A DNA stretch of 64,000 bases from the sequence record OR896830.1. The stretch is one strand, 5' to 3'. Below the pieces are notes generated by a model. The model was not told where the DNA came from, ran no database searches, and saw only the letters and a list, made by a program, of their open reading frames with translations. Both the position numbers and the translations under genes were made by a program. This DNA comes from Escherichia phage LinBro. Shown here in pieces: positions 2,465 through 63,994 of the stretch (its first letter is position 1; each line of letters starts with the position of its first letter).

Positions 2465-3010
2465 TCAAAAGTGTCCTTTTACTTGTGGAACATAGATTTC
2501 AAAGGTTGCTTTACCATCATCTGAAGGTCTCGACTGCACCTTTGCAAATACACGGTTATCATACAGCTTATCAAAGAAGTTTTCAAAAGGTAAATACACA
2601 GTGGCCTCTTCAGTAACTTTATGGAAAACTGTATGGAAAACTACACCAGCATATGGTAAAGCATCGACAAGAACACCTGCACCACCAATTACAAAGACAT
2701 CTTCATCAATAGAGCTATCAAGATACTTCAAAAATGCTCCAAAGGACTCTTTGCTGGCCTTAGCATACATTACATCTTCTTTACCAAAGTCTATACCATA
2801 ATAAGGTACAGAGTTTGTTAAGATAAGGTTTTCACGTTCTGGTAAAGGCTTACTACCCAGAGTCTTGAAAGTCTCGTTACCCATAACTACTAAGTTATCT
2901 TTAGTAAGTCTCTTAAACTCTTGCATATCCTGTTTATGTCGAGGCCACGGCATACCAGTTGGAGTGCCAAATTCACCGTTTTCACCACTTGCAAATATTA
3001 GTTTAATCAT
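2465..3010 (-). CDS. frd: dihydrofolate reductase
   Basis: 181 aa; N-terminal MIKLIFA..GENG..PW and central VMG..TF motifs of DHFR; adjacent to thyA. Confidence 0.85.
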   Translation of the reverse strand: MIKLIFASGENGEFGTPTGMPWPRHKQDMQEFKRLTKDNLVVMGNETFKTLGSKPLPERENLILTNSVPYYGIDFGKEDVMYAKASKESFGAFLKYLDSSIDEDVFVIGGAGVLVDALPYAGVVFHTVFHKVTEEATVYLPFENFFDKLYDNRVFAKVQSRPSDDGKATFEIYVPQVKGHF

Positions 3011-3267
3011 TTTGTAAACCCTTTCTTAATGAACCAGTTGATGACACTCTTCACAACTTTACTACGATGGTAGATAAAATGTGGAGAGGGTTGGTATGAA
3101 CCATAAGCCCAGAAAGCGATAATTTCATTACACCCTGTACATCGGGTACTTTCTTCAGCAATATGACCGTTGACTATTTCACTTACCTCACCTTGTAAGT
3201 CTGTACACCCACAATGTGGACATCGGATAGGTGTTCCATCAGACTCATAGCAGTGTTCAATTTTCAT
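3007..3267 (-). CDS. zinc-ribbon protein, function unknown
   Basis: CPHCGC...CTGC cysteine pairs. Confidence 0.45.
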   Translation of the reverse strand: MKIEHCYESDGTPIRCPHCGCTDLQGEVSEIVNGHIAEESTRCTGCNEIIAFWAYGSYQPSPHFIYHRSKVVKSVINWFIKKGFTK

Positions 3268-9270: not shown

Positions 9271-11452
9271 GCGCCACTGACGCATAAATGCCATTCTTGG
9301 CTTTCTTACGACCCTTACTAATTTCTTGAAGAAGGTTTGTATCCTGAGTAGCTCGACAAGTCAAGATATCTTCCTCTTTATTAAGGCTGAAGTAGATGCT
9401 ATTTAAAGTATGCGCATCAGTTCCTGAGTACACCACGTACAAGTCATTTTCAGAATCATAATGCAAATACTTGTCAATCTCTGGGTTTAGATACTGGTCA
9501 AAATGTTTGCAATAGTATCTGCCATCCTCTTGTTTGACAAACTCAACTTCTTCTTTACCCTCTGTCACTGCTTTGGTGAACTCTTTATCACCCATAAAGT
9601 TACACAGCAGTACAAGTTGCGCGCTATTCATATCTGCTGAAACAATATTAGTTCCTTCTTCACAAGTCCACACCTCCCTCATAGGTGCTCCATAGACAGC
9701 AGCACCAGACGGTACGTTTACAATACCATATTGTGTCATACGTCCAGTTGAAGTACCAAACACCATTGCACCAGCACTAAGGCGACCATCAGGACGAATC
9801 TGGTTCAACCAACCTTTTTCATCATCTTTTGAGTTCTCAATAGTTCTGCGTCGGTGCATTAAAGTATAGTACTTAGCAATCTTCTGTCCAAGCTCACCTT
9901 CAATCGTATCATAAGATGATTCAGTAAGTTTTGGTGAAGTACGGATTAAGCAAGGCTCAAGCAAATCTGTGTACTTCTTCACAGACCAGTTATGCTCAAT
10001 GTACTGTACACCTTCATGTTCAACATAACTCAAACCACACCGCTCAACCATTTCCTGCCACTTAGGATGCTTTGTAATCATCTTTTTATTGTCTTTGAAA
10101 CGACAAACTTTAACAGGGCGACCATCTGAGTCTTTCTTGTAGTTCCAGTCATCTGGAATCCAACCAACTGATTTCAAGTAGTCTTTAACAACTGCTACCT
10201 GAGTCATACGAGAAACTTCGAACTCAATTGGTGTATATGGTGCATCAATCAAACCTGTGTAGCGACTTGACTCAAGTTCAAAGTGATTGACAACGTGACT
10301 GTTATAGTACTTCACAGTCTTGACTGTTTTTACTGGTTTCCAGTCTTTGCATTTTTTGCCAATCTTTGCATTCAACTCGTTGCAGATTGCACGAGCATCC
10401 TTCATCGCTACAAAACCCTCTTTGTACTCTTCACCAGTTACAGAGTTGGTTGGTGTATAGCAATTTCTCTTTTCAATGTTAAAAATCTTTGTAGTTGGCT
10501 TACCAAATGGTTTGATTTCATAAGTCTGCATCTCACCATTACGTACCTGCTGACGGTACTTTGTCTTAGGGTACTTGGTAATTCTCTTCAGTCCATCTGC
10601 ATGACCAAATGTTTCAACATACTCATTCCAAGCTTTTGCAAACTCTTCTCCAGTCACTTTACCTTTGGTCTTAATAGTTGGAGGTAGATGTGGTTCAACC
10701 TCTGAAGCAAGCTCATTAGTCAACTTGTCAAGTTCCTTTACATGGAACTCCATAAGCTCCTTATCAGCTTTCCAACCATTGATAGCTTGTTGACTCATCC
10801 AGAAAGATGTTTCTTTAGCTCGCATATAGGTTTCATAAGTATCTATGCCACACTTCTTAAGCTTGAGATACTCATTATCAAGTGCCCGTTTAGTTTTGGC
10901 GTTAATACGGATATCTTCTACAACACGAGTGAAGATTTCTGCATTCCACACACCCCAATGTTCAATCTCTGGTTTACGGACACCAACACGAGCACCCCAT
11001 GCAGCCAAACCATGAGCACCTTTATAACCCTTTGGGGTTGGCCTATCCATCCACTGAACACGAGACTGGATAAGAGAATCCTGAAAGAAATTACTCCACG
11101 GCTTACATTTTGGATTATCAAAGTTCCATAAATCAGGCGCAATGTGATTGAAAACCCACCAGTCATAGCCGAGACCATTATGGATGCAAAGACGTTTTGC
11201 CTTTAACGCAAATTCAACACCTTCACGTAAGCCGCCCTTGATGTACTTAGTGTACTTGTGACCGAGGATAGGTTCATCTGTAAAGACCCATACAGGTGGC
11301 TCTTCATCATCAGATTTATAGTCTGCGAAAGCCATTACGTGCACTTTAGTGAACTCAAGGAGTAAACCATCAGTTTCTGTATCACCAACCAAATGTAAGT
11401 TTTTAAAATCTACGTTTTCCATTTTTACTCCCTCTAAAATCATTAACCTCAT
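9239..11452 (-). CDS. DNA polymerase (family A), N-terminal segment with 3'-5' exonuclease domain
   Basis: Exo I motif DTETDG near N-terminus, motif A-like ADMNSAQL, motif B start RKKAKNGIYA; last ~10 codons probably intron-encoded. Confidence 0.9.
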   Translation of the reverse strand: MRLMILEGVKMENVDFKNLHLVGDTETDGLLLEFTKVHVMAFADYKSDDEEPPVWVFTDEPILGHKYTKYIKGGLREGVEFALKAKRLCIHNGLGYDWWVFNHIAPDLWNFDNPKCKPWSNFFQDSLIQSRVQWMDRPTPKGYKGAHGLAAWGARVGVRKPEIEHWGVWNAEIFTRVVEDIRINAKTKRALDNEYLKLKKCGIDTYETYMRAKETSFWMSQQAINGWKADKELMEFHVKELDKLTNELASEVEPHLPPTIKTKGKVTGEEFAKAWNEYVETFGHADGLKRITKYPKTKYRQQVRNGEMQTYEIKPFGKPTTKIFNIEKRNCYTPTNSVTGEEYKEGFVAMKDARAICNELNAKIGKKCKDWKPVKTVKTVKYYNSHVVNHFELESSRYTGLIDAPYTPIEFEVSRMTQVAVVKDYLKSVGWIPDDWNYKKDSDGRPVKVCRFKDNKKMITKHPKWQEMVERCGLSYVEHEGVQYIEHNWSVKKYTDLLEPCLIRTSPKLTESSYDTIEGELGQKIAKYYTLMHRRRTIENSKDDEKGWLNQIRPDGRLSAGAMVFGTSTGRMTQYGIVNVPSGAAVYGAPMREVWTCEEGTNIVSADMNSAQLVLLCNFMGDKEFTKAVTEGKEEVEFVKQEDGRYYCKHFDQYLNPEIDKYLHYDSENDLYVVYSGTDAHTLNSIYFSLNKEEDILTCRATQDTNLLQEISKGRKKAKNGIYASVAHVKRCELLEA

Positions 11453-11679
11453 ACATTACTGCAAAAAATTATAAAAAGCAAGTTGACAATGCACTTGACA
11501 AGGTGTTAATCTTTGCGAAGTGGGTTTTTACTTAAAAGGTTACTTAACAGTTTAACTATACAGATACTTTAAAACTCTTAAAAGATTATTTAATAGCTTT
11601 TAAAAAGCTTTAAAGTATAACGTATAGAATACGTTAAGATAAAAGATTAAAACTTAATAGCTACTTAAAAGAGGCTTAC

Positions 11680-12102
11680 ATGCAGAAAATGTTTGTTCAC
11701 CCAGACATAGCTGACTTTGTTAGAGCTTTGCAGAAGTTGGAAGAACTTGACATTGCTGCTCAACGGGAATATGCTCACCATCACAGGAGAATGGTTGATA
11801 TACAACATGAAATAGAGTTGTCTGAAGACTATGAAGATGACTTAAAATGCTCTGTATTTGAGCATATGAAAGATGTTGCTACAGCGAGACGTAAAGCTAA
11901 AGACACAGTTGCTTTACTAGATTCTCTTAAAAAGAGGTTGCAAAGTGGTACAGACCTGTGTAATCTAGCATCACTGATTAACGATGTTGAAACTTCTTGG
12001 GATAGGCACTATTATCCACGTTCTGAAAAGACACTTGACTTTTCTTCATCCGAAAACTTAAAATGTTCTAGAAAGAAACTTAACCAACTGAGAGAGAAAT
12101 AA
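11680..12102 (+). CDS. hypothetical protein
   Basis: 140-aa ORF, first gene of plus-strand block. Confidence 0.45.
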   Translation: MQKMFVHPDIADFVRALQKLEELDIAAQREYAHHHRRMVDIQHEIELSEDYEDDLKCSVFEHMKDVATARRKAKDTVALLDSLKKRLQSGTDLCNLASLINDVETSWDRHYYPRSEKTLDFSSSENLKCSRKKLNQLREK

Positions 12103-42634: not shown

Positions 42635-42720
42635 AGTACTTTACAAGGGGCTTATAGTTCGATAAAGTAAGCCCCAGATAAAGAGCTTTACTAACTAACC
42701 TTAAACTAGGAGATTCAAAA
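42631..42720 (+). repeat. type-A leader element, copy 1
   Basis: ATAAAGTACTTTACAAGGGGCTTA..TAAGCCCCAGATAAAGAGCTTTAC with 8-bp stem, then AGGAG-type RBS and ATG. Confidence 0.6.
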
Positions 42721-43104
42721 ATGGCTTATCGTGCACCGAAATTCATCAACAAAGACAACTTTCGCAAAGTACTGGAGAAGTCACTTGATGAGAATTTTAA
42801 AGGCAATATTATTGTTGTTCACGCATTCAATTTTAAGTATGATGTAAACGGGAATAGAATCAACCATTACACGGCAACCATGTTAGATGGTACACTATCA
42901 AGTGAAAAAGCCGTACTGAATGCACTAGCAGGACGCGGAAAAGTATTAGTAAGATGCGATAAGCGACGTTATCAGGGTGGCGCATATGGTCATGATGATG
43001 CTGTTTATCATCTTGAAAATATGGGCTATAAAGTAGAAAAAGCTGGGGTATCGCAAATCATCGGGAGCGATGGTTATGTAACAATCTTCAAAATTAACGA
43101 ATAA
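42721..43104 (+). CDS. array gene 2, hypothetical
   Basis: 127 aa behind type-A leader. Confidence 0.45.
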   Translation: MAYRAPKFINKDNFRKVLEKSLDENFKGNIIVVHAFNFKYDVNGNRINHYTATMLDGTLSSEKAVLNALAGRGKVLVRCDKRRYQGGAYGHDDAVYHLENMGYKVEKAGVSQIIGSDGYVTIFKINE

Positions 43105-44194: not shown

Positions 44195-44281
44195 TTTTGG
44201 TTTTTAAAACAAGTAAATTACTAATCAACGGGAGGTAATAACCTCCCCACTAAGTAAAGTCCTTAAACTAGGAGATTCAAA
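44189..44281 (+). repeat. type-B leader element, copy 1
   Basis: TTGATTTTGGTTTTTAAAACAAGTAAATTACTAATCAACGGGAGGTAATAACCTCCCC...AGGAG; stem GGGAGG/CCTCCC. Confidence 0.6.
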
Positions 44282-44554
44282 ATGTACACTACTAACAACG
44301 GTCGCACCTTAAACGTAACCATTCGTCACTATGTGAACGGTGTAATGCACTTCGAAGATTTACAAGCCGAACAACATATCTTAGATTGGCAACTTGCAGG
44401 ACTACAAAAAACTGCTACAGGATACGGGAAAAAGATTCCAACCAGTTGGAAAGTATACTACGAAGGCCGTTTGCGCAGAATTTATCAAGATGTATACAGC
44501 AATAGCGCAACAAGTTACATCATAGTAAAAGGTAAAAAGCTGCATTTAGTATAA
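44282..44554 (+). CDS. array gene 6, hypothetical
   Basis: 90 aa behind type-B leader. Confidence 0.45.
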   Translation: MYTTNNGRTLNVTIRHYVNGVMHFEDLQAEQHILDWQLAGLQKTATGYGKKIPTSWKVYYEGRLRRIYQDVYSNSATSYIIVKGKKLHLV

Positions 44555-45053: not shown

Positions 45054-45146
45054 CTTGATTTTGGTTTTTAAAACAAGTAAATTACTAATCAACGGGAGGT
45101 AATAGCCTCCCCACTAAACAAAGTCCTTAAACTAGGAGATTCAAAA
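45054..45146 (+). repeat. type-B leader element, copy 2
   Basis: Near-identical to type-B copy 1. Confidence 0.6.
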
Positions 45147-45350
45147 ATGGCTATTATTAACGGTTTAACCATTGAAACTACACACATCAAAGATATTAAA
45201 GTCGGTGATGTAGTTCTCTTTCACGGTGTAGAAAAAACCGTCACGGCGAAAGATATTACAGAGGACTCCTTCATGGGTAGGTCACTCTTCGGTGATTCTT
45301 ATTGCTTAGGTTACCGTGCAGTTTTAAAAGTTGTAAAAAATAACCGATAA
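45147..45350 (+). CDS. array gene 8, hypothetical
   Basis: 67 aa behind type-B leader. Confidence 0.4.
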   Translation: MAIINGLTIETTHIKDIKVGDVVLFHGVEKTVTAKDITEDSFMGRSLFGDSYCLGYRAVLKVVKNNR

Positions 45351-46296: not shown

Positions 46297-46366
46297 TGTA
46301 AATTGTCAATCAACGGGAGGGATAACCTCCCTACTAAGTAAAGTCCTTAAACTAGGAGATTCAAAA
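46297..46366 (+). repeat. type-B leader element, copy 3 (5'-shortened)
   Basis: GTAAATTGTCAATCAACGGGAGGGATAACCTCCC...AGGAG. Confidence 0.55.
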
Positions 46367-46708
46367 ATGGCTTATGTAACCGTAATTACCGATAAAGATG
46401 GCTCATCTTGGTCAACTCAAGTAAGCGATAAGATGTCACCTATGCAGTGCCTAAAATACTTTGAGCAATGGAACAAAGGCGAGGACACAAGCCCCTTTCA
46501 AGTGATGCAGATTATCCATGTAGATAACGAAGGGAATAAAACGGTTTTAAATAGTGAGTACTACGCAAGCCGTTTTGAAACGAGAAGTAAAACAATGAAG
46601 CTTTTACGTGAATCCGGTTATGCCCATATCGCCGCGTTAATCTGGGATGACCTGCTAAAAAGTCAGCGTATCAGCTATGTAAAACCTGAAAAAATATTCA
46701 TCAGTTAA
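46367..46708 (+). CDS. array gene 11, hypothetical
   Basis: 113 aa behind type-B leader. Confidence 0.45.
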   Translation: MAYVTVITDKDGSSWSTQVSDKMSPMQCLKYFEQWNKGEDTSPFQVMQIIHVDNEGNKTVLNSEYYASRFETRSKTMKLLRESGYAHIAALIWDDLLKSQRISYVKPEKIFIS

Positions 46709-46852: not shown

Positions 46853-46929
46853 AAAACAAGTAAATTACTAATCAACGGGAGGTAATGACCTCCCCACTAA
46901 ATAAAGTCCTTAAACTAGGAGATTCAAAA
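46853..46929 (+). repeat. type-B leader element, copy 4
   Basis: Near-identical to type-B copy 1. Confidence 0.6.
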
Positions 46930-47460
46930 ATGAACAAATTTCAAGCTATCAACTACATTCGTTCAAATGCTGTAATGGCTAAGCCTGTTAAAGATACCTA
47001 CGAATTTCGCTGCAATGGGGTACACTTTGCAACCATCACTAAATCAGAAAATGGGGCTTATTATGTACATCGTCGTAATGTTGCAACCGTTGTAGTCTCT
47101 CACTTTATGCAAGCTGTAGCAGAGTTATTACCGCTATTCTTAGGGATTTACTTAGATGAGTGTAAAAACGTTCGCAACCACGTTAAAGACCTTTTAAACG
47201 GTTATAAAATGGCTTATGAGCGTTCTATCAAGTCCTTAAACAAGTTCTATAAAGCCCCTGTAAATACTGTTTCAATGGCTTACAGTGTAAGCGGTGAGTT
47301 GGTTAGTCTCTTCGAAGTGGAAGAAATCGAACTGCATGACTTGCGCCCTAGTGGTTACAGCAAAACATTGGGAGAGGGTTTATCTTTCAATATCAAGAAC
47401 TTAGAAAAAACTTTAAAAGATATTGAAAAAGACATTGACGAGACAATCAAAAATCTGTAA
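46930..47460 (+). CDS. array gene 12, hypothetical
   Basis: Start moved to ATG after leader (MNKFQAINY); track start 46885 lies inside the repeat. Confidence 0.45.
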   Translation: MNKFQAINYIRSNAVMAKPVKDTYEFRCNGVHFATITKSENGAYYVHRRNVATVVVSHFMQAVAELLPLFLGIYLDECKNVRNHVKDLLNGYKMAYERSIKSLNKFYKAPVNTVSMAYSVSGELVSLFEVEEIELHDLRPSGYSKTLGEGLSFNIKNLEKTLKDIEKDIDETIKNL

Positions 47461-47528
47461 ATTGTCAATCAACGGGGAGGGAATGACCTTCCCCACTAAA
47501 TAAAGTCCTTAAACTAGGAGACTCTAAA
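47456..47528 (+). repeat. type-B leader element, copy 5
   Basis: Near-identical to type-B copy 3. Confidence 0.55.
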
Positions 47529-47777
47529 ATGGCAACTATCCGCGCAACTGTTAACGAATTTGGCTTCTACTCTCTGGATGTTAAATTCGACCTTGTGGGT
47601 ACTGATAACGCCTTTGAAATGGTGAAAGTTCTTATCAGTCAGACCATCAAAGACTATAATCCTTCAGATGAGTTCTGGAAAGAAACAAAACAGGAAGTTC
47701 TCAAAGAGGGCTATTCATATCACTATTGGGGTGAAAAAATCGTCTCCCTGTACTACGACAAAGAAGGCACTAACTAA
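47529..47777 (+). CDS. array gene 13, hypothetical
   Basis: 82 aa behind type-B leader. Confidence 0.45.
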   Translation: MATIRATVNEFGFYSLDVKFDLVGTDNAFEMVKVLISQTIKDYNPSDEFWKETKQEVLKEGYSYHYWGEKIVSLYYDKEGTN

Positions 47778-47815
47778 TCGACGCAACGGGGCTAAATAGC
47801 CCCAGATACCTTTAC

Positions 47816-47842
47816 AGCCCCTCTGAATAGGGGCTTTTTTAC
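47816..47842 (+). terminator. rho-independent terminator closing the array
   Basis: AGCCCCTCTGAATAGGGGCT hairpin then TTTTTT. Confidence 0.65.
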
Positions 47843-47843
47843 G

Positions 47844-49424
47844 TCTTATGAAATGCCTATACAATCCTTTCCCTTTCCTTTCCAGAATCTTATCAGACCT
47901 TAAAAAGCAATAACTTTACAGCCTTTTACTAAGTCAATTAATTGGCCTTATTAATAAGCCCTTAAACATAAGCCAATAACCCCAGAAAGGGGGCAACCCA
48001 TTTAAACGCCATATAAAGCCCTATAACGGCCTTTTTAACCTAACTTAAGGGATTGCATTACCTCACCCTTAAAAGCCCTTTATAAAGCTTCACAGAGCCT
48101 TAAAAGAATCTTATAAGGGTGTAAGCTTTATTATCTCGTTAGCTATCTTGTGAACTACTAAACAACCCCCTTGATAGTAACTGAAAAGTATGTTATAGGG
48201 GCTTTAAAGTTACTTTGAAGTAGCTTAAAAGTTACGTAAATGCTAGCCCCCTTAACATTTTCTTAACATTTTCTTAACAATCCCTACATAGTTATGCTTG
48301 TTAGAGACTTGTTAGCCCCTTGTTAAATCTCTGTTAAGACCACGTAAAAGCCTTGTAAGAGTCTTTGACATAGCCTTAAAAGCTCCTGTAAAGCCCTATA
48401 AAGAGGTGTCTGTATAGTTGGGGGATAGATACTAGGAAGAGACTTAAAAGGGCTTATAAAGAGCTATAGAGAGCTTCTAAGAGGTATGTTTAAGGAATCA
48501 CTAAGAAAGAGAGGGAACGATAAGAAAGAAGTAGTGACCATGTTAATAGCTTGTTAAAAAGATTAAACACTTGTTAGAGACTTGTTAATTATCTTAATAA
48601 AATAACTCTTTAAAATTAACTTGTTAGCTCTTGTTAGTCATCTGTTAAGATTCTGTAAAGCCTATTCAGCACTTGTTAGAAAACTGTTAAGCCCTTGTTA
48701 GTTCTGTTAAGAATCTGTTAAGACCTTTGAAGAGTTGTTAAGAAGATGTGAGAACTGTTAAGAGATTGTTAAGGATATTTTAAAATTTTGCAAAGTACTT
48801 GTAAGGGAGCTGTTAAGGGCTACCAAGCAGATATACATCTTCTACAGATATTTTTCAGTTCCTTCAAAGACCCTAAAAAATGACTTGATAGTCCTATTTT
48901 ATAAAAATTTTAAGATTCTGAATAATTACCTAGACAGTCTTTTAAAAATACAGGTAATAACAGGCTTATAAGATACCTTGTTAGTACCGTGTTAGACCTT
49001 GTGAGATAAGGTCTGTAAAGATATTCCTGTTAAGTTTGTTAAAACAGTCTATATAGAGGCTTAGTAGTACCTAGTGAACACCTATAGAGAGTGTCATAGC
49101 TGACATAGAGATTAAGAGGTGTATAGGAGCTTCTAAGAGGGTATAGAGAGATGGTTAAGGTGATTGTATAGGTTGTTAAGAAGGATTGTTAGAAGAGTGT
49201 TTAGAAGGGCTATTTAGAAGGGCTATACAGAGAGCTATTAAGACCACTAGATAGTTACTAAGACACTATATAGTACTATATAACTATATAGAGAGTAAGA
49301 TTAAGAAGGTTGTTAAGAAGGGTAGATATTTTGTTCACATATGATGGTGACCCAGAGGTTGGGACAACCGATAAAATTTTATAAAAATTAAAAAGCCCCC
49401 AATTAAGGAGGCTCTTAAGATATT
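47844..49424. repeat. ORF-free region dense in short direct repeats
   Basis: No ORF of 60 aa or more on either strand; more than 20 copies of (C/T)TGTTA(A/G) at helical-turn spacing, CCTTAAAAG repeats, tandem TTAGAAGGGCTAT. Confidence 0.5.
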
Positions 49425-50030
49425 TTAAATGAGTGTTTCCAGAACTGTCTTCAGTGATGACTTGGTTGTCTGATAAAAATGAGTGAAGCCGTTGTTGTTA
49501 TCAAACACCTGCATCATGATATCATCTCCCTTGATTGGGTACACTCGGATATCATAGTGAAGCCCATTAAAGACAGCAGAACCACTACAGAATGAACTAA
49601 AATCATCTACTGAGATGTACTCTTCATGACCTGTGATTTTTATACAAACACCTTTACTCGGTCTCTTAGGGTTGATATCTTCCATCACAGACATATTCTG
49701 TCCACCAAGAGATATCATAGTGACCACTTTACGGTTCTTCTGTCTGAAGTACATTTTAACCTTCTGCAAGGTATCTTCATAGAACGGATAAGACTTCTCT
49801 ACAAAGATTCCTTCAAGTGGCTCTTTACCGTTTACAATACCTCTGGTATGGCGTACTGAGAAGATAAGTTGCTCTAGCAGGTCAAGGCTTTCTTCGGATA
49901 GTGCTTCCCGAATATCATTCCAATCAAGTACTAGGTAGTTACCTTCAACATCTTTTAAGTTATCTTTTTCCATATCTATCACACCATTATCGTAAAACTT
50001 GGTAAGCTGGGACTGCAAACTTGTTGCCAT
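49425..50030 (-). CDS. hypothetical protein
   Basis: 201-aa ORF. Confidence 0.45.
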   Translation of the reverse strand: MATSLQSQLTKFYDNGVIDMEKDNLKDVEGNYLVLDWNDIREALSEESLDLLEQLIFSVRHTRGIVNGKEPLEGIFVEKSYPFYEDTLQKVKMYFRQKNRKVVTMISLGGQNMSVMEDINPKRPSKGVCIKITGHEEYISVDDFSSFCSGSAVFNGLHYDIRVYPIKGDDIMMQVFDNNNGFTHFYQTTKSSLKTVLETLI

Positions 50031-63398: not shown

Positions 63399-63491
63399 GG
63401 AAGATTAACCCTAAAAGGTAAGGGAGCAGTTTGCTAAACTGCCAGTAGCTGAGAAATCGGTGTACCAGTTCAAGTCTGGTATCTTCCTCCA
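63399..63491 (+). tRNA. tRNA-Ser (anticodon GCT), long variable arm
   Basis: Acceptor GGAAGAT/ATCTTCC perfect, anticodon stem GCAGT/ACTGC, loop TTGCTAA, long arm, T-arm ACCAG-TTCAAGT-CTGGT. Confidence 0.75.
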
Positions 63492-63495
63492 ATTT

Positions 63496-63571
63496 GAATC
63501 CGTGACAGAAATGGATATGTGCCTGTCTGCAAAACAGGTTTATAAGGGTTCGAGTCCCTTCGGATTCTCCA
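63496..63571 (+). tRNA. tRNA-Cys (anticodon GCA)
   Basis: Acceptor GAATCCG/CGGATTC perfect, anticodon stem CCTGT/ACAGG, loop CTGCAAA, T-arm AAGGG-TTCGAGT-CCCTT. Confidence 0.75.
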
Positions 63572-63793: not shown

Positions 63794-63994
63794 ATGAGTG
63801 AGACCGTTTATAAAGAACTTTATGAAGCTAACAAAAAGCTAGAATTTATGCAGAACACTATCATGGCAATTGCAGATAGATTATCTGTAGCAACAGGTAT
63901 TGATATCAAAGAAGCCTCTATGGATGCACTTCTTGATGCTGTTGATGCAAAGTTCGAAGTTAAGAAAGAAGAGACTGCTACAGACTCTGAATAA
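63794..63994 (+). CDS. hypothetical protein
   Basis: 66-aa ORF with stop just before window end. Confidence 0.35.
   Translation: MSETVYKELYEANKKLEFMQNTIMAIADRLSVATGIDIKEASMDALLDAVDAKFEVKKEETATDSE

Follow-up and report, generated by a model that had tools for sequence, protein, structure and literature searches.

What is the role of a 1.6-kb stretch of phage DNA that holds no gene of appreciable size and is instead packed with short repeats? This question is raised by a locus in Escherichia phage LinBro that we studied in a stretch of 64,000 nucleotides from its sequence record (OR896830.1; hereafter the window, to which all coordinates refer). An initial annotation of this DNA had noted that positions 47844–49424 lack any open reading frame (ORF) of 60 amino acids or more and had proposed that the repeats form a protein-binding array, be it an origin of replication, a site of packaging, or the genome end region of a circularized assembly. 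We consider it very probable that the two genome ends of a Felix O1-like myovirus meet at this locus (the concatemer junction), with the repeat array as a protein-binding mark for DNA packaging.

The absence of larger ORFs was readily confirmed: The only frame of at least 30 amino acids inside 47844–49424 (30 being the minimum of the ORF listing) is a 31-amino-acid TTG ORF at 48788–48883. Another ORF of 49 amino acids on the minus strand barely overlaps the left edge, and the real intergenic gap extends over 47778–49424. Its main parts are as follows.

47778–49424, no strand: ORF-free gap between convergent genes (ORF listing and annotations of relatives)
47844–48245, no strand: left flank, non-coding and C-rich on the plus strand; unique sequence just inside the right-hand copy of the terminal repeat in virion DNA
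48246–48824, plus strand: direct terminal repeat (DTR) of 579 bp, present as a single copy in the assembly (placed with PhageTerm-oriented records of relatives)
48825–49424, no strand: right flank, non-coding and G-rich on the plus strand; unique sequence just inside the left-hand copy of the DTR in virion DNA

The terminal repeat known from Felix O1-like phages maps to the gap

In BLAST searches, over 190 Felixounavirus records aligned with the full length of the gap region at 86–96% identity, and phage bumzen came closest (95.8% identity). By this similarity, the DNA of the window is that of a Felixounavirus, i.e., a Felix O1-like myovirus, and the Felix O1 equivalent of the gap is the interval between ORF23 and ORF24. 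One record filed under a Staphylococcus organism name also matches the region and is probably a mislabelled or contaminated entry.

Several of the matching records have been oriented by their genome ends, and these ends fall inside the gap. Window positions 48246–48824 align end to end (92.4% identity) with bases 1–581 of the Pr103Blw record (MW481326), a segment that is annotated there as “short direct terminal repeat region”, is present at two places in the record, and corresponds to the 581-bp DTR that the Pr103Blw paper determined with PhageTerm; at both boundaries, the two sequences are identical. Similarly, the record of phage D4 (PP886228), announced with direct terminal repeats via PhageTerm, begins at window position 48246, and its last 581 bases equal the first 581 without a mismatch. 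Several independent submitters have deposited further records that start at the left boundary or no more than approximately 20 nt away from it (among them PP886229, PP952733, OR498728, MN994499, and OQ174509), while OQ743992 begins, in reverse, at the right boundary and MG969404 as well as MG969405 stop within a few bases of it. Many of the BLAST-matched records begin at query position ~403 and match at two places. The record of BPS15Q2 (KX405003) was rejected as a terminal-repeat record, having no end repeat and being merely opened approximately 14 bp left of the boundary.

A second method leads to the same element. For UAB_Phi87, Bal31 digestion and run-off sequencing had established fixed, non-permuted ends and a DTR of 608 bp (PMC4837284, Fig. 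S1), and the published DTR sequence maps to exactly 608 bp of the UAB_Phi87 genome that correspond to window positions 48254–48826 (the older 87,603-bp version of JN225449 opens in the tRNA region with uninformative ends, and the supplementary sequence of the UAB_Phi87 paper was used instead). Published DTR lengths in this group are 581 bp (Pr103Blw), 608 bp (UAB_Phi87), and 613 bp (Ro111lw), and the conserved boundary sequences lie 569–633 bp apart in eleven relatives and 579 bp apart in LinBro. With two methods in agreement on the element, homology identifies 48246–48824, give or take a few bases, as the DTR of the linear virion DNA. Since the LinBro assembly has one internal copy of it, the repeat must have been collapsed and the contig opened elsewhere, so that the two genome ends meet inside the contig. 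Among the initial proposals, the genome end region of a circularized assembly is therefore the one borne out by the relatives’ DTR.

A helically phased array of TGTTAR motifs fills the repeat

The motif that had first drawn attention to this locus, (C/T)TGTTA(A/G) or YTGTTAR, had been described as occurring in more than 20 copies at roughly 10–11 bp spacing, densest around 48540–48780. We counted 26 exact copies across 48274–49316, all except one on the plus strand, compared to approximately 1.7 expected per 1.6 kb from the 66 copies on both strands in the other 62.4 kb of the window. The shorter form TGTTAR occurs 30 times in the gap (27 copies on the plus and 3 on the minus strand), and 23 of these copies lie within the DTR. 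They are densest at 48541–48816, and the modal distance between successive copies is 11 bp (11 of 26 intervals; most others are 9, 10, 20, or 31 bp), in line with the initial description. Overall, k-mer enrichment in the gap reaches 15- to 100-fold; the octamer CTTGTTAG, for example, was observed 8 times with 0.03 copies expected, and CTGTTAAG 8 times with 0.15 expected. Five elements of the DTR stand out.

48249–48257, minus strand: 9-mer TGTTAAGGG, 3 nt inside the left DTR boundary (9-mer count)
48251–48279, minus strand: three TTAACA copies (TGTTAA on the minus strand) in a perfect 11-bp tandem, CTTAACATTTT × 2.6, at offsets 6, 17, and 28 from the left DTR end
48299–48337, plus strand: four TGTTAR copies spaced by exactly 11 bp (motif scan)
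48541–48816, plus strand: main array with 16 TGTTAR copies (motif scan and phase analysis)
48811–48819, plus strand: 9-mer TGTTAAGGG, 5 nt inside the right DTR boundary (9-mer count)

Except for the minus-strand trio, all TGTTAR copies point rightwards, and the last one in the DTR ends 8 nt before the right boundary. The 9-mer TGTTAAGGG is found 3 times in the whole window (0.38 expected), and two of these copies are the outermost sites of the DTR, inverted relative to each other.

Across approximately 510 bp, the 20 plus-strand copies in the DTR keep a common phase that is best described by a period of 10.4 bp (Rayleigh R = 0.79), and 0 of 2000 random placements attained this R value. Because 10.4 bp is the helical repeat of B-DNA, these 20 sites therefore lie on one face of the double helix. 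The AA/TT periodicity of the region, scored as a sign of intrinsic curvature, is not above that of the rest of the window, so that the phasing belongs to the TGTTAR motif and not to A-tracts or simple curvature. Seven relatives from three genera repeat this phase (10.2–10.5 bp, R of 0.73–0.80) despite insertions that alter the length of their DTR, and it is weaker in phiEa21-4 (9.9 bp, p = 0.03). Together with the conservation footprint on the motif described below, the helical phasing strengthens the initial suggestion of a phased protein-binding array.

Gap, boundaries, and motifs are conserved across genera

We found no ordinary genes at this locus in any of the four genera that we compared: Curated annotations leave the gap free of ORFs in Felixounavirus (Felix O1, bumzen, allfine, and VpaE1), Mooglevirus (Moogle and Sf17), Suspvirus (SUSP1 and CHB7), and Kolesnikvirus (Erwinia phage phiEa21-4, where it spans 1.2–1.4 kb). 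The impression that such a region is highly unusual for a phage thus holds within the window but not for the group, where the gap is a fixed feature conserved across the subfamily Ounavirinae.

Conservation is strict at the two ends of the repeat. The left boundary reads ...GTTACGTAAATGCTA/GCCCCCTTAACATTTTCTTAACA... (immediate junction GCTA/GCCCCCTTAACATTTTCTTAACA; the slash marks the boundary) and the right boundary ...TGTTAAGGGCTACC/AAGCAGATATACATC... (immediate junction TGTTAAGGGCTACC/AAGCAGATATAC), and both blocks are invariant or nearly so in 11 genomes from 3 genera (Felixounavirus, Mooglevirus, and Suspvirus). The offsets of the TTAACA trio from the left DTR end are identical in Felix O1, UAB_Phi87, VpaE1, Moogle, and CHB7. 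Just beyond the right boundary lies another conserved element.

48825–48851, plus strand: conserved box AAGCAGATATACATC...CAGATAT, invariant or nearly so in three genera and recognizable in phiEa21-4

The boundary sequences also allowed us to predict the repeat of phiEa21-4 (approximately positions 2666 to 3106 of its locus, L010), and the predicted positions are those at which Kolesnikvirus records start (query 556–558) and end (query 994–997), giving a DTR of approximately 440 bp.

Between genera, the gap is 81–82% identical at the nucleotide level compared to 67–75% for the flanking genes. Within the gap, bases of TGTTAR motifs are 93% conserved against other genera and the remaining bases 72%, a difference that none of 2000 circularly shifted motif masks equalled, though one that may be somewhat inflated by repeated motifs anchoring the aligner, which counts against our interpretation of the array. 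As a separate observation, VpaE1 (Felixounavirus) and Moogle (Mooglevirus) have the same 24-bp sequence, ATGAGGTAGATTCTACCGAATCAA, inserted immediately beyond the right-hand boundary of the DTR (after the equivalent of window position 48839). This insertion is absent from the closer relatives of either phage and suggests an exchange of end regions between genera.

A model for terminus recognition in genome packaging

Precise DTR ends are made by terminase at a concatemer junction. The packaging site that had been proposed initially would be a natural consequence of such ends, and the array lies within the DTR and runs up to both cut sites. In T7-type phages, each concatemer junction holds one repeat; recognition of pacB falls to the small terminase and cleavage, at fixed sites, to the large subunit (PMC9860248). 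We propose that LinBro would similarly replicate into unit genomes that are arranged head to tail and joined via one copy of the DTR. A sequence-specific protein, probably a small terminase or another partner of the large terminase TerL, would bind cooperatively to the approximately 23 TGTTAR sites of the DTR, 20 of them on one helix face, and the bound array would mark the junction and recruit or position TerL. The inverted TGTTAAGGG copies near the boundaries could place the nuclease in mirror-image geometry at both, and if the top strand were nicked at the left boundary and the bottom strand at the right boundary, the resulting 5′ overhangs would cover the repeat. Their fill-in would duplicate it, and each daughter genome would receive its own copy. 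Terminators on either side would keep convergent transcription out of the junction, and a role in spacing or in the binding of accessory factors is possible for the different repeat families of the flanks. Most likely, the array is the set of protein-binding sites for terminus recognition and cutting in packaging.

By homology with D4, TerL is encoded just past the end of the window (in D4 approximately 17 kb from the left end), and Felix O1-type TerL proteins are reported to cluster as a DTR group (PMC4837284). Two ORFs precede it in the window.

62663–63397, plus strand: 244-amino-acid DUF7217 protein, encoded between tRNA genes
63794–63994, plus strand: 66-amino-acid ORF, PHROG 4397 (unknown function)

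On the other side, the 82-amino-acid homologue of ORF23 that precedes the right genome end belongs to PHROG 4559 (unknown function) and to no Pfam family. The Felix O1 genome paper lists the ORF23 product among virion proteins detected by whole-phage mass spectrometry (PMC3185647), and a small virion protein encoded beside the DNA end could be an end-binding protein.

A more far-reaching version of this model is that the phased TGTTAR array and its inverted TGTTAAGGG caps would form a complete recognition-and-cutting signal, conserved across the Ounavirinae, for a terminase without canonical small subunit, that a small DNA-binding protein of a new kind would read this signal (with the 66-amino-acid product encoded just upstream of TerL and the virion-associated ORF23 product as candidates), and that the mirror-image sites would explain the staggered nicks that duplicate the repeat. 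We put this forward as a tentative possibility on which we would not yet rely.

Several observations weigh against the proposed packaging role or limit its precision. The ends of the LinBro isolate itself are assigned by homology, and the methods applied to its relatives disagree slightly on the cuts, with run-off sequencing putting the left end 8 nt inward and the right end 2 nt outward of their places in the PhageTerm-oriented records. The disagreement may be noise of the methods, or the ends may have short single-stranded extensions (we note in passing that the Kolesnikvirus records end at a position matching the run-off right end). Moreover, the 3-nt/5-nt symmetry of the TGTTAAGGG copies holds for boundaries of the PhageTerm type only. 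The array is not strictly a feature of the DTR, given that 7 TGTTAR copies lie beyond it, all of them in the right flank, and it may additionally serve replication or end protection. We know of no protein that binds TGTTAR, and PHROGs and Pfam yielded nothing beyond families of unknown function for the four genes that flank the gap. The same is true of the window ORFs 63794–63994 and 62663–63397, neither of which is recognizable as a small terminase; none is annotated next to TerL in D4 (a Pharokka-based annotation), and Felix O1 was reported to have none either (Whichard 2010, PMC3185647).

Alternative functions of the region

A replication origin, in which a phage initiator binds the phased repeats and melts AT-rich DNA instead of or besides packaging, is in our view an unlikely explanation. 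The many direct repeats in helical phase would suit it, as would non-coding DNA that is better conserved than the neighbouring genes and two 100-bp stretches of 24% GC at 48550–48649 and 48850–48949 (weak as evidence for an unwinding element in a genome of 38% GC), and the papers that we found report no mapped origin for the Felix O1-like group. However, no DnaA box (TTATCCACA with at most one mismatch) is present in 47778–49424, and the repeat units of 6–8 bp at 11-bp spacing differ from the classical iterons of lambda, P1, and plasmid origins, which measure 17–22 bp. The array ends exactly at both DTR boundaries, as fits a role in making ends, and both adjoining gene clusters, whose genes next to the gap match no family of known function, are transcribed towards the site and terminated before it. 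An origin is expected at the minimum of the cumulative GC skew, but the gap coincides with its maximum, as a terminus would, and the minimum lies near 11–12 kb, a pattern that is confounded by gene orientation. Taken together, the initial proposal of an origin at this locus is not supported. At ~11000–12000, the skew minimum coincides with a switch from minus-strand to plus-strand genes, and three copies of ACTTAAAAG/TCTTAAAAG are found at 11530–11671; if the skew is informative, an origin is more plausible in this divergent region than in the gap.

It is also rather improbable that the site serves the genome ends apart from terminase, with a host or phage protein that protects them from RecBCD as they enter, pauses or controls DNA ejection (a role proposed for the injection stop signal of T5), or pairs the ends. 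This idea draws on phage T5, where a big untranslated and repeat-rich block is likewise tied to the terminal repeat, on the reported presence of the adjacent ORF23 product in Felix O1 virions, and on sub-terminal flanks with mirror-image strand composition. Yet the T5 region is defined by 8 DnaA boxes that have no counterpart in the LinBro gap, two-step injection is not known for Felix O1-like phages, and ORF23 shows no recognizable DNA-binding domain in PHROGs or Pfam.

Finally, we can hardly credit that the gap encodes non-coding RNAs or micro-peptides with the repeats as by-products: Some records do annotate “hypothetical proteins” of 25–49 amino acids in it and weak sigma-70-like matches are approximately twice as frequent as expected from shuffles, but these promoter matches are no better than 9 of 12, the longest ORF measures 31 amino acids in a gap that curated annotations of four genera leave ORF-free, no Rfam 15 family matches at E ≤ 0.1 (the sole match, to an archaeal snoRNA, is at chance level with E = 0.76 and 16.8 bits, the gathering score being 35), folding of the boundary regions does not surpass that of shuffled sequence, and conservation peaks on a short DNA motif instead of a reading frame or helix.

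Relation to known systems and implications

The DTR at this locus is already known in the sense that it has been published and annotated in GenBank for Felix O1-like phages. The LinBro element is the same as in UAB_Phi87, Pr103Blw, and Ro111lw, with orthologous sequence, the same boundaries, the same two neighbour genes, and the same length class; nothing essential differs. In the LinBro assembly, the two terminal copies are collapsed into a single internal one.

Among more distant systems, T7 reportedly carries arrays of short repeats beside its terminal repeat, as Dunn and Studier are said to have described in 1983. The T7 concatemer junction, with its packaging signals pacB and pacC, resembles the LinBro region in its short exact terminal repeat, present in one copy per junction, with terminase signals and fixed cuts in T7 (PMC9860248). 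It differs in that the T7 repeat has 160 bp and a known small terminase, gp18, whereas the LinBro repeat of approximately 580 bp carries its short repeats mostly inside and no small terminase is recognizable; there is no evidence of a sequence relationship between the two regions. The pac site of P1 consists of TGATCA/G hexamers clustered on either side of the cut (7 in 162 bp), is regulated by Dam methylation, and directs headful packaging with permuted ends. It shares with LinBro a short motif in several copies flanking a terminase cleavage site, but the LinBro region has fixed ends, approximately 30 copies, and no GATC in its motif. For reading the array, parC of plasmid R1 offers a structural analogy: Its two sets of five 11-bp repeats are cooperatively bound by ParR, i.e., direct repeats about one helical turn apart support a one-sided filament or wrap. 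This system serves plasmid partition, however, and no ParR or ParM genes are present at the LinBro locus.

According to a preprint on T5, its terminal repeat of approximately 10 kb contains an untranslated, repeat-rich block that holds the injection stop signal and an ordered set of 8 DnaA boxes (Davison, bioRxiv 10.1101/866236). The likeness to LinBro lies in a big, conserved, ORF-free, and repeat-rich block tied to the terminal repeat, the difference in the DnaA boxes around which, in that source, the T5 block is built and of which the LinBro gap has none. A T5-like phage with an injection stop region was ruled out as the source of the window by the BLAST assignment to Felixounavirus and the lack of these boxes.

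The papers that we read on Felix O1-like DTRs state the length or the sequence of the repeat only and do not describe its flanks. In the literature that we searched, we likewise found no description of the array of iterons, of its phasing at 10.4 bp, of the 9-mers that lie inverted at the two ends, or of the conservation of both cut sites throughout the subfamily. The consulted portion of the Felix O1 genome paper (PMC3185647) lists repeats of at least 24 bp without mention of the gap region, and that of the PhageMaP paper on Bas63 gives gene scores and nothing on the gap. The iteron anatomy is therefore apparently undescribed and would be a modest but testable addition. The assignment of the DTR matters mainly for annotation: The gap is neither a mis-assembly nor a lost gene or new element but marks the start and end of the linear genome, and the contig should be re-opened at 48246 with a second DTR copy added. 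More broadly, the region provides a clean and testable map of a probable packaging signal for widely used phages, such as the Felix O1 phages of Salmonella typing and biocontrol or the model phage Bas63, in a group so far without defined small terminase or pac site. The boundaries, and probably the array as well, would be needed to make transducing particles or to reboot synthetic Felix O1-type genomes.

Flanks and other features of the window

On either side of the DTR, approximately 400 bp (left) and 600 bp (right) of conserved non-coding DNA are each closed by a terminator that ends the convergent gene cluster ahead of the junction. The following features belong to this frame.

47529–47777, plus strand: homologue of Felix O1 ORF23, 82 amino acids, left neighbour of the gap
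47816–47835, plus strand: intrinsic terminator ending the plus-strand (early-type) gene cluster; a terminator is annotated at the homologous place in Moogle
49189–49226, plus strand: 13-bp tandem TTAGAAGGGCTAT, two exact copies and one degenerate copy (Tandem Repeats Finder)
49391–49416, minus strand: intrinsic terminator ending the minus-strand gene cluster; a terminator is annotated at the homologous place in Moogle
49425–50030, minus strand: homologue of Felix O1 ORF24, 201 amino acids, right neighbour of the gap

The flanks carry repeat families of their own. Units of the type GCC(C)TTAAA(AG)/TATAAAG characterize the left flank, and the unit GTTACGTAAA(A/T)G that adjoins the left boundary varies between 1 and 3 copies among relatives. 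The repeated units noticed initially at 47900–48400 are of the CCTTAAAAG type and extend further, with 10 copies of up to one mismatch in 47898–48869 (approximately 1.4 expected); this motif also occurs scattered in other intergenic regions of the window. Besides its seven TGTTAR copies, the right flank holds CTATAGAGAG-type units. When two mismatches are allowed, CTATAGAGAG is only marginally enriched across the window (86 copies compared to 64 expected), and copies with no or one mismatch cluster in the right flank. The tandem reported at 49200–49230 corresponds to two exact copies of TTAGAAGGGCTAT at 49201–49226, and Tandem Repeats Finder assigns 3.0 copies with 88% matches to 49189–49226.

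GC skew flips inside the gap (47800–49450), from −0.3 to −0.47 left of approximately 48350 to +0.3 to +0.8 right of it, so that the two flanks mirror each other in strand composition. The virion DNA strand is thus G-rich in the sub-terminal flanks when read inward from either end. Folding of single-stranded DNA at both boundaries and on both strands was no better than in shuffled sequences (z of −0.15 to +0.88), and the DTR boundaries gave no sign of a hairpin such as has been discussed for T7.

Two further features of the window lie apart from the gap. A cassette of 70–110 bp recurs upstream of successive small plus-strand genes (42690–42754, 44213–44282, 45077–45152, 46298–46371, 46860–46932, and 47457–47533). 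Its parts are a sequence resembling a promoter (TTGA...N...GTAAATT), a hairpin (GGGAGG...CCTCCC), and a ribosome-binding stretch that is invariant (CCTTAAACTAGGAGATTCAAAAATG), and two repeats that the Felix O1 genome paper lists, of 39 bp and 57 bp, are probably contained in it. At the other side of the gap, 26 tRNA genes, all on the plus strand, are clustered at 58665–63571 with a few small ORFs in between.

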